64,000 nt of DNA from assembly GCA_964621165.1 (NCBI GenBank), contig CAZULC010000011.1, positions 438-64,437 on the forward strand, given 5' to 3'. The notes beneath the pieces are model-generated. The model saw only the letters and a list, made by a program, of their open reading frames with translations, was not told where the DNA came from and ran no database searches. This document shows positions 3,635-44,577 of the stretch, one piece after another (position 1 is the first letter of the stretch; each line of letters starts with the position of its first letter). The stretch comes from an uncultured Ruminococcus sp. Lineage in GTDB: Bacteria > Bacillota > Clostridia > Oscillospirales > CAG-272. The position numbers were made by a program, and so were the translations under genes.

Positions 3635-5161
3635 ATGAAAAAGAAAATTTCGCTTCTTTTGGCTGTCTTGCAGATCACATTGATACTTGCGGCATGTTCA
3701 AACGGAGATGACAGCAATAGTGACTCATCAGCTTCCGGAGATGGAACAAATTCTGCATCCGGACAGACAGAAACGGAAGAGCAGACTGAAACAGAAGAGC
3801 CTGATCCTTTTGCGGATGTGGATTACGACGGCAGATCACTGAGGATCTACACCTCAATAGACACAAACGACGCTACAAACGGCGACAGATTCATTCGCGG
3901 CACCGGCGAAATCACCGGTGAGGCAGTCAATGACGCGGTGTATAACCGTAACCAGAAGGTGTCACAGCTTCTCGATATAAAGCTCGAATACGTTGAGGCA
4001 AACTACTATTACGCCGAAGTTGTACCCAACCTCAAAACCGAAATTCAGAGCGGCAGCAATGACTGGGATATTATCGCAAATGACCTGCGTGCTATCGCAA
4101 ACCTCTCCTCCGGCGGATATATCAAGAATATTTACTCCACCAATATACTCGATCTCGAAAAGTCCTACTGGTACAGCGAAGCTATGGACGATCTTCAGTT
4201 CATAGAGGGCGGTAAATTCTGTATTTTAGGCGACTACTTTACCGATATTATTGCATCCGCACACACCCTTTATGTAAATGAAACAAAAATGAATGCTCTC
4301 TATGGAGATACAGATTACGTAAACAAAATGGTTTTTGACGGCACATGGACTATTGATGAGTGGACTAAGATAGTTGATGCCGCATACGAAGACACAAACG
4401 GCAACGGTACAGCTGATTCTGATGACTTTTACGGCTATACGTCAATCGGCTACTGGGGTCCCGCTATTCCATCACTCATGGGTATGGACATTCAGTTTGT
4501 AACGAAGACAGACGATGGCGTTGAATATTCGTTCAACAACGAAAAATCCATAACCGTTCTTGAAAAGCTAAACGCACTGTACTTCTCTACCGGAACAAAC
4601 GCGGGACTGAGCGATGTTACAGATATGCGTACGAACTTCGCAAACGGCAGTACTCTGTTCATGGGATATAACCGTCTCGGCGATATGGAATACCTCCGCG
4701 ACGTCGAATTTGAAGTAGGCGTTGTTCCTTACCCAAAGTATGACACAGCTCAGGAAAACTATAATACATCCCTCCACGACACAACCGAAATCGGTGCTAT
4801 TCCCTCATTCGTCGTAGGAGACGACCTCAATTTCGTACTCACATGTCTCGAAGTTCTGTGCCGTGAAACTTCCAAGACCGTTATCCCAGAGTACTACGAA
4901 AACGGACTTAAAGTCAAGTATGCTGACGGTGAGGATGACGCCAAGATGGTTGACATAATCCATGATTCCATATGCTCACCGTTCGCTGTGGCATATGACG
5001 AACTTCTTGGCAACTTCCTCCTTAGAAACTGCCTCCTTGACAGACTTGCCGAAAATTCCACCGATTTCGCTTCCGCTTACAAGACCTACGAAAAATCTGG
5101 AAACAAGCTGCTAAGAAAGATAACTGACAACTTTAAGGAAGTTATCGAAAATGATCCGTAA
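3635..5161 (+). CDS. large extracellular solute-binding-type lipoprotein, paralog 1
   Basis: GGAGG RBS with ATG at 3635. Signal peptide with lipobox (LILAAC). A Ser/Thr/Glu-rich linker (QTETEEQTETEE) follows. The ~480-aa body resembles the large sugar-binding SBPs of Clostridia (NDAVYNRNQKV motif). No adjacent permease genes. Confidence 0.75.
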   Translation: MKKKISLLLAVLQITLILAACSNGDDSNSDSSASGDGTNSASGQTETEEQTETEEPDPFADVDYDGRSLRIYTSIDTNDATNGDRFIRGTGEITGEAVNDAVYNRNQKVSQLLDIKLEYVEANYYYAEVVPNLKTEIQSGSNDWDIIANDLRAIANLSSGGYIKNIYSTNILDLEKSYWYSEAMDDLQFIEGGKFCILGDYFTDIIASAHTLYVNETKMNALYGDTDYVNKMVFDGTWTIDEWTKIVDAAYEDTNGNGTADSDDFYGYTSIGYWGPAIPSLMGMDIQFVTKTDDGVEYSFNNEKSITVLEKLNALYFSTGTNAGLSDVTDMRTNFANGSTLFMGYNRLGDMEYLRDVEFEVGVVPYPKYDTAQENYNTSLHDTTEIGAIPSFVVGDDLNFVLTCLEVLCRETSKTVIPEYYENGLKVKYADGEDDAKMVDIIHDSICSPFAVAYDELLGNFLLRNCLLDRLAENSTDFASAYKTYEKSGNKLLRKITDNFKEVIENDP

Positions 5162-5535: not shown

Positions 5536-7059
5536 ATGAAAAAGATGGTTGCATTGTTTCTTGTGACTGTTCAGTTGCTACTCGCACTTGCCGCCTGCTC
5601 AAATGGTGACAGCGATACAGAAACTACGTCTGTGACAAATGAAAATACGCCGTCCGATGAGCAGACAGAAACGGAAGAACAGACTGAAACAGAAGAGCCT
5701 GATCCTTTTGCGGATGTGGATTACGATGGCAGAGCACTGAGGATTTACACCTCAATCGACACAGACGACGCCACAAACGGGGATCGATTTATCCGGGGCT
5801 CAGGCGAAATCACCGGTGAGGCAGTCAATGACGCGGTGTATAACCGTAACCAGCAGGTGTCACAGCTTCTCAACATAAACTTAGAGTACACTGAAGCCAA
5901 CTATAATATGACCGTCGTTCTTGCCAATCTGAAAAATGAAATTCAGTCTGGAACAAACGATTGGGATGTCATAGCAAATGACATACGCACTATCGCAAAC
6001 CTCTCCTCCGGCGGATATATCAAGAATATTTACTCCACCAATATACTCGATCTCGAAAAGTCCTACTGGTACAGCGAAGCTATGGACGATCTTCAGTTCA
6101 TAGAGGGCGGTAAATTCTGTATTTTAGGCGACTACTTTACCGATATTATTGCATCCGCACACACCCTTTATGTAAATGAAACAAAAATGAATGCTCTCTA
6201 TGGAGATACAGATTACGTAAACAAAATGGTTTTTGACGGCACATGGACTATTGATGAGTGGACTAAGATAGTTGATGCCGCATACGAAGACACAAACGGC
6301 AACGGTACAGCTGATTCTGATGACTTTTACGGCTATACGTCAATCGGCTACTGGGGTCCCGCTATTCCATCACTCATGGGTATGGACATTCAGTTTGTAA
6401 CGAAGACAGACGATGGCGTTGAATATTCGTTCAACAACGAAAAATCCATAACCGTTCTTGAAAAGCTAAACGCACTGTACTTCTCTACCGGAACAAACGC
6501 GGGACTGAGCGATGTTACAGATATGCGTACGAACTTCGCAAACGGCAGTACTCTGTTCATGGGATATAACCGTCTCGGCGATATGGAATACCTCCGCGAC
6601 GTCGAATTTGAAGTAGGCGTTGTTCCTTACCCAAAGTATGACACAGCTCAGGAAAACTATAATACATCCCTCCACGACACAACCGAAATCGGTGCTATTC
6701 CCTCATTCGTCGTAGGAGACGACCTCAATTTCGTACTCACATGTCTCGAAGTTCTGTGCCGTGAAACTTCCAAGACCGTTATCCCAGAGTACTACGAAAA
6801 CGGACTTAAAGTCAAGTATGCTGACGGTGAGGATGACGCCAAGATGGTTGACATAATCCATGATTCCATATGCTCACCGTTCGCTGTGGCATATGACGAA
6901 CTTCTTGGCAACTTCCTCCTTAGAAACTGCCTCCTTGACAGACTTGCCGAAAATTCCACCGATTTCGCTTCCGCTTACAAGACCTACGAAAAATCTGGAA
7001 ACAAGCTGCTAAGAAAGATAACTGACAACTTTAAGGAAGTTATCGAAAATGATCCGTAA
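5536..7059 (+). CDS. large extracellular solute-binding-type lipoprotein, paralog 2
   Basis: GGAGG RBS with ATG at 5536 and lipobox LALAAC. The N-terminal third has diverged from paralog 1. The protein is identical from IANLSSGGYIKNIY to the C-terminus. Confidence 0.75.
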   Translation: MKKMVALFLVTVQLLLALAACSNGDSDTETTSVTNENTPSDEQTETEEQTETEEPDPFADVDYDGRALRIYTSIDTDDATNGDRFIRGSGEITGEAVNDAVYNRNQQVSQLLNINLEYTEANYNMTVVLANLKNEIQSGTNDWDVIANDIRTIANLSSGGYIKNIYSTNILDLEKSYWYSEAMDDLQFIEGGKFCILGDYFTDIIASAHTLYVNETKMNALYGDTDYVNKMVFDGTWTIDEWTKIVDAAYEDTNGNGTADSDDFYGYTSIGYWGPAIPSLMGMDIQFVTKTDDGVEYSFNNEKSITVLEKLNALYFSTGTNAGLSDVTDMRTNFANGSTLFMGYNRLGDMEYLRDVEFEVGVVPYPKYDTAQENYNTSLHDTTEIGAIPSFVVGDDLNFVLTCLEVLCRETSKTVIPEYYENGLKVKYADGEDDAKMVDIIHDSICSPFAVAYDELLGNFLLRNCLLDRLAENSTDFASAYKTYEKSGNKLLRKITDNFKEVIENDP

Positions 7060-19828: not shown

Positions 19829-20326
19829 ATGGATTCAGAATATCTTGAGTTAATATCGCTGAATATCTGGCACATCATCGCCACCATAGCCAATCTCCTG
19901 ATTCTCATGCTCATTTTAAAGAAATTCCTGTTCAAGCCGGTTCAGAAAATCATGGCTGAGCGGCAGAGTCAGGTGGACGAGCTTTACGCCGGCGCTGAGG
20001 AAGCCAAAACTCAGGCAGAGGCTGACCGTAAGCTTTACAGTGAAAAACTGGAAGGCGCACATGCCGAGGCGGATTCGATTATAAAGAACGCCACACGCCG
20101 TGCGGACAAGCTGGGTGAGGAGATCATCGAGGAAGCCAAAGCCAAAGCCGCCGACACTGCACTTAGAGCCGAGGCTGACATCGAGCGAGAGAAAAAGAAG
20201 GCTATGAGCGAGCTGAAAAACGAAATCTCGGAAATATCCGTGCAGATTGCCGAAAGCGTGGTTTCGAGAGAAATCAAGGAAGGCGACCACAAGGAACTCA
20301 TCGACTCCTTTATCGACAAATTATAA
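19829..20326 (+). CDS. atpF: F0 ATP synthase subunit b
   Basis: 165 aa with an N-terminal TM helix and a long charged helix, in the expected operon position. Confidence 0.9.
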   Translation: MDSEYLELISLNIWHIIATIANLLILMLILKKFLFKPVQKIMAERQSQVDELYAGAEEAKTQAEADRKLYSEKLEGAHAEADSIIKNATRRADKLGEEIIEEAKAKAADTALRAEADIEREKKKAMSELKNEISEISVQIAESVVSREIKEGDHKELIDSFIDKL

Positions 20327-20465
20327 CGCGTGAAATATACAGAAAAACCTGATTTTAGTCAGCTGTTTTCACGCTAAAGAATTCCTTGAAAAACGGAACC
20401 AACCATTTTTCATCGTCTTTTAGACGACCGGAATTCTTTCAGAGATATATTTAAGGGGTATATGT
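20327..20465 (+). repeat. family-1 structured intergenic repeat, copy A (atpF|atpH spacer)
   Basis: It begins immediately after the atpF TAA. Stem GCGTGAAA(20328-35)/TTTCACGC(20367-74). Stem AAAGAATTCC/GGAATTCTTT (about 20376-20439) encloses TGAAAAACGG-aaccaa-CCATTTTTCA and the hairpin CGTCT-ttt-AGACG. It is homologous to the reverse complements of 26652-26911 and 43611-43836. Confidence 0.85.
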
Positions 20466-26651: not shown

Positions 26652-26911
26652 GAGGAAGCTCCTTTCAATTTACAAAAATTGCCAATGCCTTTTAATCAAG
26701 CAAAATAATAGTTAATACTTCGCTTAATGTCCTAAGCTAAACAAGCGAACAGATACAAACCACAGCTTGTCCTCGCTCCACATCTTAGATTAAACGTGAG
26801 AAGAATTCCGGTTTGCGAAGCAAATTGAAAATGGTTGGTTCCGTTTTCAAAGGAATTCTTCAGTGTGAAACCAGCTTATATGAAGTCCGCACTCGCTGAA
26901 TGTTTCACACG
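26652..26911 (-). repeat. family-1 structured intergenic repeat, copy B (efp|downstream gene spacer), long form
   Basis: Read on the minus strand, it starts right after the efp TAA. Stem GTGTGAAAC/GTTTCACAC. Core 26800-26861 has stem GAAGAATTCC/GGAATTCTTC, hairpin TTTGC-GAA-GCAAA, and hairpin TTGAAAATGG-ttggtt-CCGTTTTCAA. The conserved block CTCGCTCCAC lies at 26772-81, followed by the extra hairpin ACAAGC(26741-46)/GCTTGT(26765-70). Confidence 0.85.
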
Positions 26912-27469
26912 TTAAGCTCTTTCGAGGTACTCGTTTGTTCTGGTGTCGATTCTGATCTTGTCGCCAGTGTTGATGAATAGGGGAACCCTGATGGTGGCGC
27001 CTGTCTCAACTGTAGCCGTCTTGGAAGCACCTGTTGCTGTGTCACCTCTAACGCCGGGCTCGCAGTCCGTGATTTCAAGCTCAACGAACATGGGGGGCTC
27101 TACCGCGAAGGGCTTGTCCTGATAGGAGTGAATCTTGCAGATCATCTCTTCCTTGACGAACTTGAAGTTGTCGCCGATGAGATCCTTGCCGATCGGAACC
27201 TGCTCGTAGGAGTCGAGATCCATGAAGTAGTAAAGGTCGCCGTCGCTGTACAGATACTGCATATCCTTGCGGTCGATTCTCGCGTCGTTATATTTATCTG
27301 TGGGGGAGAATGTCTTTTCAACAACCGCGCCGGTGATAACGTTTCTCAGCTTTGTTCTGACAAACGCCGCACCCTTGCCGGGCTTTACATGCTGGAACTC
27401 GATAACCTGCATTACCTGTCCGTCCATGTCGAATGTGATACCGTTTTTAAAATCGCCTGCTACAACCAT
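26912..27469 (-). CDS. efp: elongation factor P
   Basis: 185 aa. The N-terminal [39 protein letters not shown] is canonical EF-P. Confidence 0.96.
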
Positions 27470-43610: not shown

Positions 43611-43836
43611 TTATATGGTGTCCTTTACTTTTTCTGAGTTAAACTATTGCCAAAGCCAGCGGAAGAACTCCACTGTATAATTAAATCTGCACGAGTTCTC
43701 GCTCCACGTCTTAAGCAAAATGTTGGAAGAATTCCGGTAGGCTGAAAGCCGATGAAAAATGGTGGGTCCCGTTTTTCAAGGAATTCTCTGGCACGAAATC
43801 AGCTGAATAAAATGAAGTATTTCTAACCATTTCGTG
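43611..43836 (-). repeat. family-1 structured intergenic repeat, copy C (fabG|fabF spacer), long form
   Basis: Read on the minus strand, it starts at the fabG TAG. Stem (G)CACGAAAT/ATTTCGTG(C). Core 43726-43788 has stem GAAGAATTCC/GGAATTCT, hairpin GGCT-GAA-AGCC, and hairpin TGAAAAATGG-tgggtc-CCGTTTTTCA. CTCGCTCCAC lies at 43698-43707, with the extra hairpin AGAACTC/GAGTTCT. Confidence 0.85.
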
Positions 43837-44577
43837 CTACATCGCCATGCCGCCGTCGATTCTGATTACTTCTCCGGTGATGTACCCCGCCATATCCGAA
43901 GCCAAGAACGTCACGAGAGCCGCTACTTCTTCGGGCTTGCCCATGCGTCTCAGGGGGATTGCGTCGGTGACTTCCTTGCGGTCGGCAAATTCCTTCGTCA
44001 TGTCAGTGGCAATGAATCCGGGGGCTATGGCGTTGCAGGTGATTCCACGGCTTCCAAGCTCCTTCGCAAGGGATTTTGTCAGTCCGATGATTCCGGCTTT
44101 GGACGCGGCGTAGTTCGTCTGTCCGGCGTTGCCCATGATTCCGGCAATGGAGCTGATGTTTATGATTCTGCCGCTCTTCTGCTTTAAAAATGTCTGGCAG
44201 AGCTGGCGTGTCACGTTGTATACTCCCACGAGGTTTACGTTGATGACGTCGGTGAAGTCGTTGTCACGCATCGTCAGCATAAGTTTGTCACGGGTGATTC
44301 CGGCGTTGTTCACGAGAATGTCAACCCGTCCGAACTCGGCGAGAACCTTCTTCACGCAGTCCGTTACCTCGTCCATTTTGTCAACATGGCAGGGATACGC
44401 GGCGGCTTTTACACCGTATTCTTCGGCTTCACGGACAGCGGACTCCAAATCCTCGGGCTTTCCCGCACAGAGAATTGCCACGTTCGCGCCCTCTGACGCA
44501 AATTTCAGGGCTATAGCCTTGCCGATTCCTCTTGAGCCGCCTGTAACAACGGCTACTTTATCTTTTAATGTGTTCAT
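43837..44577 (-). CDS. fabG: 3-oxoacyl-ACP reductase
   Basis: 246 aa with TGGSRGIG, YAASK and an SDR fold, in the expected cluster position. Confidence 0.94.
   Translation of the reverse strand: MNTLKDKVAVVTGGSRGIGKAIALKFASEGANVAILCAGKPEDLESAVREAEEYGVKAAAYPCHVDKMDEVTDCVKKVLAEFGRVDILVNNAGITRDKLMLTMRDNDFTDVINVNLVGVYNVTRQLCQTFLKQKSGRIINISSIAGIMGNAGQTNYAASKAGIIGLTKSLAKELGSRGITCNAIAPGFIATDMTKEFADRKEVTDAIPLRRMGKPEEVAALVTFLASDMAGYITGEVIRIDGGMAM

Follow-up and report, generated by a model that had tools for sequence, protein, structure and literature searches.

The DNA analyzed here (the window, 64,000 nt of a single contig, in which a position equals the contig coordinate minus 437) contains three copies, designated A, B and C, of a structured intergenic repeat, all of them situated between co-directional genes. 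Copy C lies between fabG and fabF, copy A in the atpF-atpH gap and copy B in the gap between two minus-strand genes. The + strand of copy C is the one on which a particular position of stem P3 reads as G.U (hereafter the G.U strand) and is antisense to both fabG and fabF. The modules and stems identified in the window are the following:

43611..43720, + strand: extra spacer module of copy C, ~110 nt, between the junction and the fabF start
43721..43840, + strand: full ~120-nt module of copy C (three-way junction and hairpin P4), between fabG and fabF; 118.7 bits with covariance model R1 (G000:C11:44158-44277)
43726..43735, + strand: 5' arm of P1 in copy C, GAAGAATTCC, with its partner at 43780-43789
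43740..43750, + strand: P2 hairpin of copy C, GGCT-GAA-AGCC, read from the sequence
43753..43778, + strand: P3 hairpin of copy C, TGAAAAATGG-TGGGTC-CCGTTTTTCA, arms at 43753-43762 and 43769-43778
43780..43789, + strand: 3' arm of P1 in copy C, GGAATTCTCT, read from the sequence
43791..43837, + strand: P4 hairpin of copy C, GCACGAAAT...ATTTCGTGC, with a variable interior, from sequence and folding
20325..20444, - strand: full module of copy A in the atpF-atpH gap, R1 133.3 bits, core at 20376-20439
26795..26913, + strand: full module of copy B in the gap between two minus-strand genes, R1 110.3 bits, core at 26800-26861

Read along the + strand, the core of copy C (43726-43789) has the order GAAGAATTCC-GGTA-GGCTGAAAGCC-GA-TGAAAAATGG-TGGGTC-CCGTTTTTCA-A-GGAATTCTCT, in which the closing stem P1 and the two hairpins P2 and P3 make up a three-way junction. 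A core of three stems had been proposed in the first-pass annotation of this DNA, and it was found at this position and in both sibling copies, with compensatory changes in all three stems. Direct reading of copies A-C also bore out the P1 and P2 sequences given there, as well as a compensatory A-T/G-C switch in P1 between copies A and B. Two details had to be adjusted: the P1 arms are as quoted, but the outer two positions in copy C are G.T and A.C, leaving 8 clean pairs, and the conserved 10-bp P3 is present in copies A and C, while that of copy B is one A-T pair shorter (TGAAAATGG/CCGTTTTCA). The P3 pattern, whose chance expectation in the window is 0.02, was found at two loci and, in shortened form, in copy B. 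All three copies carry T.G at the same P3 position (T43760.G43771 in copy C, which on the sense strand reads C.A), and the strand with T.G is antisense to the flanking genes in 3/3, as had been reported. In copy C, P4 ends on the C that opens the reverse complement of the fabG stop codon TAG (CTA, 43837-43839), and the P2 of copy B contains GCGAAGC.

Copies B and C share part of the ~110-nt module (GTYCTCGCTCCAC...) as repeat D5 (26769-26812 and 43695-43738, 80% identity). This module (26652-26794 in copy B, 43611-43720 in copy C) sits between the junction and the downstream start codon, and copy A and most other copies lack it. Elsewhere in the window, a repeat finder detected a 300-nt direct repeat with 84% identity (3764-4063 and 5662-5961). 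Searches against Rfam returned only two tRNAs in the window at the gathering score, and around copies A and C only noise (E ≥2, with E up to 10 allowed).

The genome was scanned in full (2.30 Mb, 31 contigs), first with a regular-expression search and then with covariance model R1, which yielded 30 full-length copies and about 12 partial ones. The core proved to be the middle part of a ~120-nt unit, in which the junction is followed by a long hairpin, P4 (GCGTGAAAT ... ATTTCACGC, with a variable interior). Variants of this arrangement included a subfamily of 8 copies, 138-142 nt long, in which the 3' arm of P3 is missing and another hairpin (GAATGAG/CTCATTC) is found instead, and about ten loci with P4 alone. 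At one locus (G000 C2:162029-162097; L093:101-169) the entire core is absent and GGAAAGAA|TTCTTTGG is joined to an intact P4, the leftover expected of a deletion between two GAATTC palindromes in the P1 arms. At another (G000 C9:37697-38029; L013:1289-1621) two copies stand in tandem with a run of N between them, the first one stopping inside the 3' arm of P4, which could reflect an assembly gap or the insertion of one element into another. A coding element was considered and rejected: the frames present in some copies (10 codons on the G.U strand, 5 codons from a GTG on the sense strand) are interrupted by indels and compensatory changes in others.

The three-way junction was very strongly supported by compensatory changes, both within this genome and across genera. 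Among the 22 canonical copies of this genome, 94.7% of the pair cells were standard pairs and 16 of the 35 pairs had changed on both sides; none of 500 shuffles matched this level of covariation, and slid registers were also all lower. In relatives, 43 distinct copies showed 96.4% of cells paired, compared to 65.3% in shuffles, and compensatory changes in 34 of the 35 pairs, figures drawn from an alignment fitted to the covariance model, which somewhat favours structure. The arms of P2, for which complementarity had been noted in the window copies, showed compensatory changes in 4 of 6 pairs in this genome and 6 of 6 in relatives. The pairs of P4 behaved likewise (6/9 covarying in this genome, 9/9 in relatives), and the fold z-scores of the three window copies (junction and P4) ranged from -3.7 to -6.5. 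Stem cells were 95-96% paired, whereas the interior of P4 was almost unalignable; across genera, sequence conservation was seen in the arms of P4 and the GG of the P3 loop. Selection acts on the pairing of all stems.

The distribution of the repeat was patchy. Among congeners, 5 of 24 species carried it (24, 17, 2, 2 and 2 copies), 12 of the 97 genera sampled from the same family had diverged full-length matches, and none of 16 other families of the order had any. The closest relatives by FabF (78-80% identity) had no copies, and their fabG-fabF spacers measured 58 and 25 nt, compared with 227 nt here. The atpF-atpH spacer was 139 nt long here and 13-18 nt in the nearest relatives, and comparison of the filled and empty spacers placed the start of the insert right after the stop codon. 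No gene next to a copy in this genome also adjoins any of 40 copies in relatives, i.e. the sites are non-orthologous. Strain-level filled and empty alleles were found neither by a FabG look-up, which retrieved one other contig whose spacer is the same one of 226 nt, nor by a metagenome scan with FabF (closest match ≤60% identity), nor by a pattern scan of genome representatives, which gave only about 15 chance matches in unrelated phyla. The single further assembly encountered derives from run SRR10165008. Plasmid and phage collections contained no similarity to the repeat.

The hallmarks of a transposable element were searched for at the ends of the copies and among the genes of the genome. 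The ends of the 30 aligned copies share only a TGAAA pentamer, with no terminal inverted repeats, and no direct repeat was found across their boundaries; the filled/empty comparison at atpF-atpH gave no target duplication either, in relatives so diverged that short duplications may be blurred. There was no match to the Y1 transposase (PF01797) in this genome (96% complete), and in congeners this family occurs in some species irrespective of repeat content. A reverse-transcriptase partner (PF00078) was discarded: at genus level matches were present in 4/6 carriers and 0/6 non-carriers, but they are group II intron proteins, and the link was gone at family level (2/13 carriers versus 8/17 non-carriers). 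A group II intron that looks intact was observed outside the window (G000 C14:52685-54905; L208:3685-5906), with a reverse-transcriptase ORF of 553-585 aa and Rfam matches to domain V/VI and D1-D4, while a second reverse-transcriptase match (C14:51294-51929) has three stop codons; both loci are about 3-6 kb from two repeat copies in the atp operon.

The orientation of the repeat was close to invariant with respect to the neighbouring genes. In 21 of 22 co-directional spacers of this genome and in 15 of 15 of relatives, the G.U strand was the antisense one for both neighbouring genes (36/37 in total, based on longest-ORF gene calls). On one and the same contig the orientation reverses within 5-30 kb, together with gene direction; the element strand was the G-rich strand in 10 of 30 copies, and local GC skew was weak and uncorrelated. 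Since the flips follow gene direction and skew is uncorrelated, the lock is to transcription and not to replication, and a replication-linked orientation such as that of IS200/IS605-like elements was rejected on the grounds of the short distances between flips and the weak skew.

Both ends of the repeat are closely tied to the flanking genes. In roughly half of the copies the 3' end, as read on the G.U strand, adjoins or runs into the stop codon of the gene upstream. At the 5' end of the same strand a fixed block was recognized, consisting of CAAATAG, a G+C-rich stem (P0), the reverse complement of (A)ATGGAG, 7-9 nt and a reverse-complemented ATG. A strict search recovered it in 19 of 38 copies of relatives and 6 of 30 in this genome (more by eye, 6-9 of 30 in this genome), compared to 0 of 68 in a mirrored control. 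The P0 stem covaries (TGTCACC/GGTGACA, GTCGCA/TGCGAC, CCGCCGC/GCGGCGG), and on the gene strand the block reads as P0, Shine-Dalgarno sequence and start codon. This block is the one unambiguous strand-specific functional signal of the family, and it lies on the sense strand. The window copies A-C have no P0/Shine-Dalgarno module directly attached (0/3), and because only 6-9 of 30 copies of this genome have one, selection accounts less well for the orientation lock here than in the family at large.

The atpF-atpH junctions of relatives have a ribosome-binding site directly behind the stop codon (TAA/TGA-GAGG...). In these compact operons the resident ribosome-binding site is at or within the end of the upstream gene. 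Insertion after the stop codon would part that site from its start codon and would be tolerated only if the insert brings a replacement, which offers a simple reason for the orientation lock. About 20 of 38 copies of relatives (for instance L036, L035, L041 and L044), as well as those at C5:19671 and C8:20978 of this genome (G000), have a CCTCC-like motif no more than 8 nt from the element's 3' end. On the gene strand it reads as GGAGG, about 5 nt and the GTG of P4, with the look of a stranded resident ribosome-binding site, and in some copies this GGAGG precedes a 5-codon GTG...TAA mini-frame.

The strand on which the fold acts was considered in the light of several cues. The first-pass annotation had described the P3 mismatch as common to every copy and diagnostic of strand, a hint that the folding RNA would be made from the antisense strand, and had named a feature of the sense RNA or action as DNA as alternatives, both of which stay plausible. 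Neither its constancy nor its diagnostic value held beyond the window. U.G occupies the position in only 14-15 of the 22 canonical copies, the others having U-A (6), C.A (1) and, under MAFFT alignment, U.U (1), and in 8 further copies the 3' arm of P3 is missing; relatives have G-C (13), U-A (12), C-G (8) or U.G (3) at this pair. As the state varies among copies and species, this is an ordinary covarying pair. U.G is the wobble intermediate between C-G and U-A, carried by the founder copy of this genome and amplified with it, and it counts as one evolutionary event because it was inherited from that one copy. The single U.G pair is thus not proof of the folding strand. Outside this position, G.U-type and A.C-type cells are balanced in this genome (12 vs 11), 15 of its 27 G.U cells being contributed by the one inherited position. 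In relatives there were 24 G.U to 10 A.C cells, in 12 and 7 pair columns respectively, cells which are not independent and which come from an alignment fitted on the G.U strand.

Folding of both strands of the copies resulted in identical topology. The core of the G.U strand was ~3.5 kcal/mol more stable in 19 of 22 copies, but the z-scores of the two strands were alike, and folding energy was rejected as a strand discriminator. A consensus scan detected no promoter or terminator common to copies A-C on either strand. The same junction on both strands and the lack of a common antisense promoter or terminator in these copies also speak against the mismatch as a diagnostic of strand. Another cue was found in the P2 loop, which on the G.U strand is a GNA triloop closed by C-G or T-A in 33 copies (0 on the sense strand), and each of the four bases occurs at N. 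When closed by C-G, GNA triloops such as d(GCGAAGC) are exceptionally stable DNA mini-hairpins. The triloops and the mild G.U excess in relatives weakly favour the antisense strand, and the Shine-Dalgarno module favours the sense strand. The triloops, together with the conserved P4 arms and the GG of the P3 loop, keep a role as single-stranded DNA alive, while a role as antisense RNA is less likely.

The explanation that we prefer, and to which we would give about an even chance, is that the junction forms the middle part of an intergenic cassette, modular and non-autonomous, which would be co-transcribed with its neighbours as the sense strand and adopt an insulating or stabilising fold. In gene direction, such a cassette would comprise the stop codon, P4, the three-way junction (P1/P3/P2) and, in many copies, P0 with the Shine-Dalgarno sequence and the start codon. 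It would have been copied into very short gaps right behind stop codons in housekeeping operons, in a patchy set of lineages. One of its ends would supply or adjoin the ribosome-binding site of the downstream gene, and the single orientation relative to transcription would have arisen because only that orientation keeps the gene translated. Co-transcription is suggested by the position within operons and the absence of predicted terminators; the operon mRNA would carry the cassette as the sense strand, with the C.A version of P3. This RNA would fold into compact, self-contained stems, most likely insulating the insert from the neighbouring mRNA, and, in line with proposals on other co-transcribed repeats, the stems may also shield the cistrons on either side from exonucleases. 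The U.G seen on the opposite strand would be a frozen half-step of the C-G to U-A exchange, derived from the founder copy. If the fold acts in mRNA, by insulation, stabilisation or switching, such cassettes would offer gut and rumen Clostridia a natural means of rewiring the junctions of their operons, and polycistronic constructs could use them as a ready-made part.

It is also conceivable, if rather unlikely, that the relevant fold is that of the single-stranded template (G.T) DNA, in which junction and P4 would be recognized by a recombinase or transposase, or by a replication or repair factor that copies the element. Folded single-stranded DNA is recognized in integron attC sites, IS200/IS605 ends and the T-shaped hairpins of parvoviruses. 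The C(GNA)G or T(GNA)A triloops of P2 (33 copies on the G.T strand vs 0) fit such a role, as does the overall excess of G.T-type over A.C-type cells (51 to 22), and conservation of the P4 arms and of the P3-loop GG across genera is what would be expected of a site recognized by a protein. However, 15 of the 27 G.U cells of this genome trace to a single inherited position, the orientation tracks local transcription with flips within 5-30 kb instead of replication, and transcription exposes the non-template strand, not the G.T template strand; moreover, this genome has no Y1 transposase and the copies neither target duplication nor terminal repeat. If the element did act as single-stranded DNA, an unrecognized route of mobilisation with no known transposase would be implied.

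An improbable reading, built on modelled folds, is that the junction in sense mRNA serves as the sensing domain of a mobile translational leader that tunes many housekeeping genes. The 3' arm of P1 (sense ...UUCUUUCAU) and CUAUUU would have two alternative partners, one within the junction/P0 and the other the AAUGGAGG Shine-Dalgarno region, the choice depending on the effect of a ligand, a protein or temperature on the junction. The Shine-Dalgarno sequence does belong to the repeat, at fixed spacing, and predicted sense folds pair its region with CUUUCAU/CUAUUU (mean unpaired probability of 0.01-0.45 in nine copies). Most of the genes downstream of the copies are tied to growth (atp, tsf, fabF, fmt, pth, dtd, clpX, dnaJ, polA), but they differ wholly between genomes, with no conserved regulon, and the closest relatives lack the element. 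In another genus, two species (G200 and G132, loci L048/L049) share an orthologous 116-nt element with 0 differences, in a 1160-nt alignment that as a whole is 10.7% different, and the ~95 nt toward the downstream gene start, P0/Shine-Dalgarno module included, show one difference. In a second orthologous pair one whole flank is near-identical, so that it offers no contrast with the element. The lack of an attached P0/Shine-Dalgarno module in copies A-C and the few, short junction nucleotides also weigh against a sensor. Taken further, junction, P0 and Shine-Dalgarno sequence could form a mobile RNA switch, in which the 3' arm of P1 and CUAUUU would by turns close the junction and mask the ribosome-binding site in response to a common signal, and which would co-regulate dozens of growth genes wherever it has landed, a proposition which we find quite improbable; if true, a regulon would have been assembled by transposition of an RNA switch.

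That each copy, or many of them, gives rise to an antisense RNA whose fold contains the G.U pair and whose target is the operon transcript seems very unlikely. The G.U and GNA-loop cues are on the appropriate strand, and copy A alone has one 9-of-12 promoter-like match on the G.U strand, CTGACT-17-TATATT, located inside P4; yet copies B and C have no promoter-like site, a terminator was found in 0 of the 3 window copies, and the wobble is not conserved. Besides, in most copies only 0-40 nt separate the 5' end of the element on the G.U strand from the neighbouring gene's start codon, and a promoter would therefore have to overlap the initiation region of that gene at 30 or more loci. Finally, it is hardly tenable that the copies are inert, decaying remnants with stems merely inherited from a founder, as might be supposed from the lack of an identifiable function, the patchy distribution and the truncated or module-deleted copies, given that 34 of 35 pairs keep pairing across genera via two-sided changes, that stems are 95-96% paired next to a nearly unalignable P4 interior, and that an orthologous element is identical between flanks that are ~10% different.

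Returning to the cassette that we favour, its features were compared with those of known systems. Integron attC sites share with it the conservation of structure over sequence, a location directly behind the stop codon of the preceding gene and, on the G.U strand, a relation to the gene, in that the folding strand of attC is the antisense one; long attC sites may also have a branched top. Unlike attC, the repeat has no RYYYAAC / GTTRRRY core sites at its ends (only copy C has a GTTGGAA-like string, on the wrong strand), its copies are scattered over housekeeping contexts such as atp, fab, tsf, clpX and dnaJ on many contigs and not gathered in a cassette array, and its orientation alternates with gene direction along the contig. 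REP/REPIN sequences are likewise abundant extragenic palindromic repeats in operons, with proposed mRNA-stabilising roles, but REPs are described as single G+C-rich hairpins of 20-40 bp with a GTAG/CGTC tag (PMC3733652), and unlike in REP/REPIN-RAYT systems there is no Y1/RAYT gene in this genome. As in MITEs, the copies are small, non-coding, numerous and non-orthologous, although terminal inverted repeats and target duplication are absent. The repeat does not resemble cis-regulatory leaders or riboswitches in having a conserved set of regulated genes, the downstream genes here being diverse and unshared with relatives. The hammerhead core CUGAUGA...GAAA was absent from the element by inspection.

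The repeat belongs with the small structured interspersed repeats, and the nearest described kinds are bcr1 and BOX. Like pneumococcal BOX (boxA-boxB-boxC), RUP, SPRITE, ERIC and Correia elements, it is built of hairpin modules that also occur alone or in other combinations (PMC3184786), and it shares with them a location in transcribed intergenic spacers and a predicted structure at the RNA level (PMC3184786), transcription being in our case deduced. Sequence and modules differ from those of all these families, the terminal inverted repeats and target duplications of Correia and RUP are absent here, and neither a 36:1 orientation lock nor a ribosome-binding-site module is a defining feature of BOX, RUP, SPRITE, ERIC or Correia. 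The element bcr1 of the Bacillus cereus group has been described as a special class of mobile sequence, thought to be co-transcribed with its neighbours (PMC3184786). The resemblance to it (bcr group A) extends to a length of about 120-155 bp, the non-coding and multi-copy character and the non-conserved positions (PMC3184786), as well as to a multi-stem fold upheld by compensatory changes among dispersed copies, which was also found here. The two differ in that bcr1 has flanking 5-bp direct repeats, none of which were seen here, and two independent stem-loops in place of a three-way junction and a hairpin; there is no sequence similarity, the bacterial class is another one, and the Shine-Dalgarno module and the abutment on stop codons are particular to the present repeat. 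Set beside these systems, it is an unusually clean case of a small interspersed repeat with a multi-stem fold selected across genera, locked to the direction of transcription and often bringing its own ribosome-binding site, and it carries a concrete lesson for the study of such families, namely that a lone wobble shared among copies of a repeat does not amount to strand evidence.
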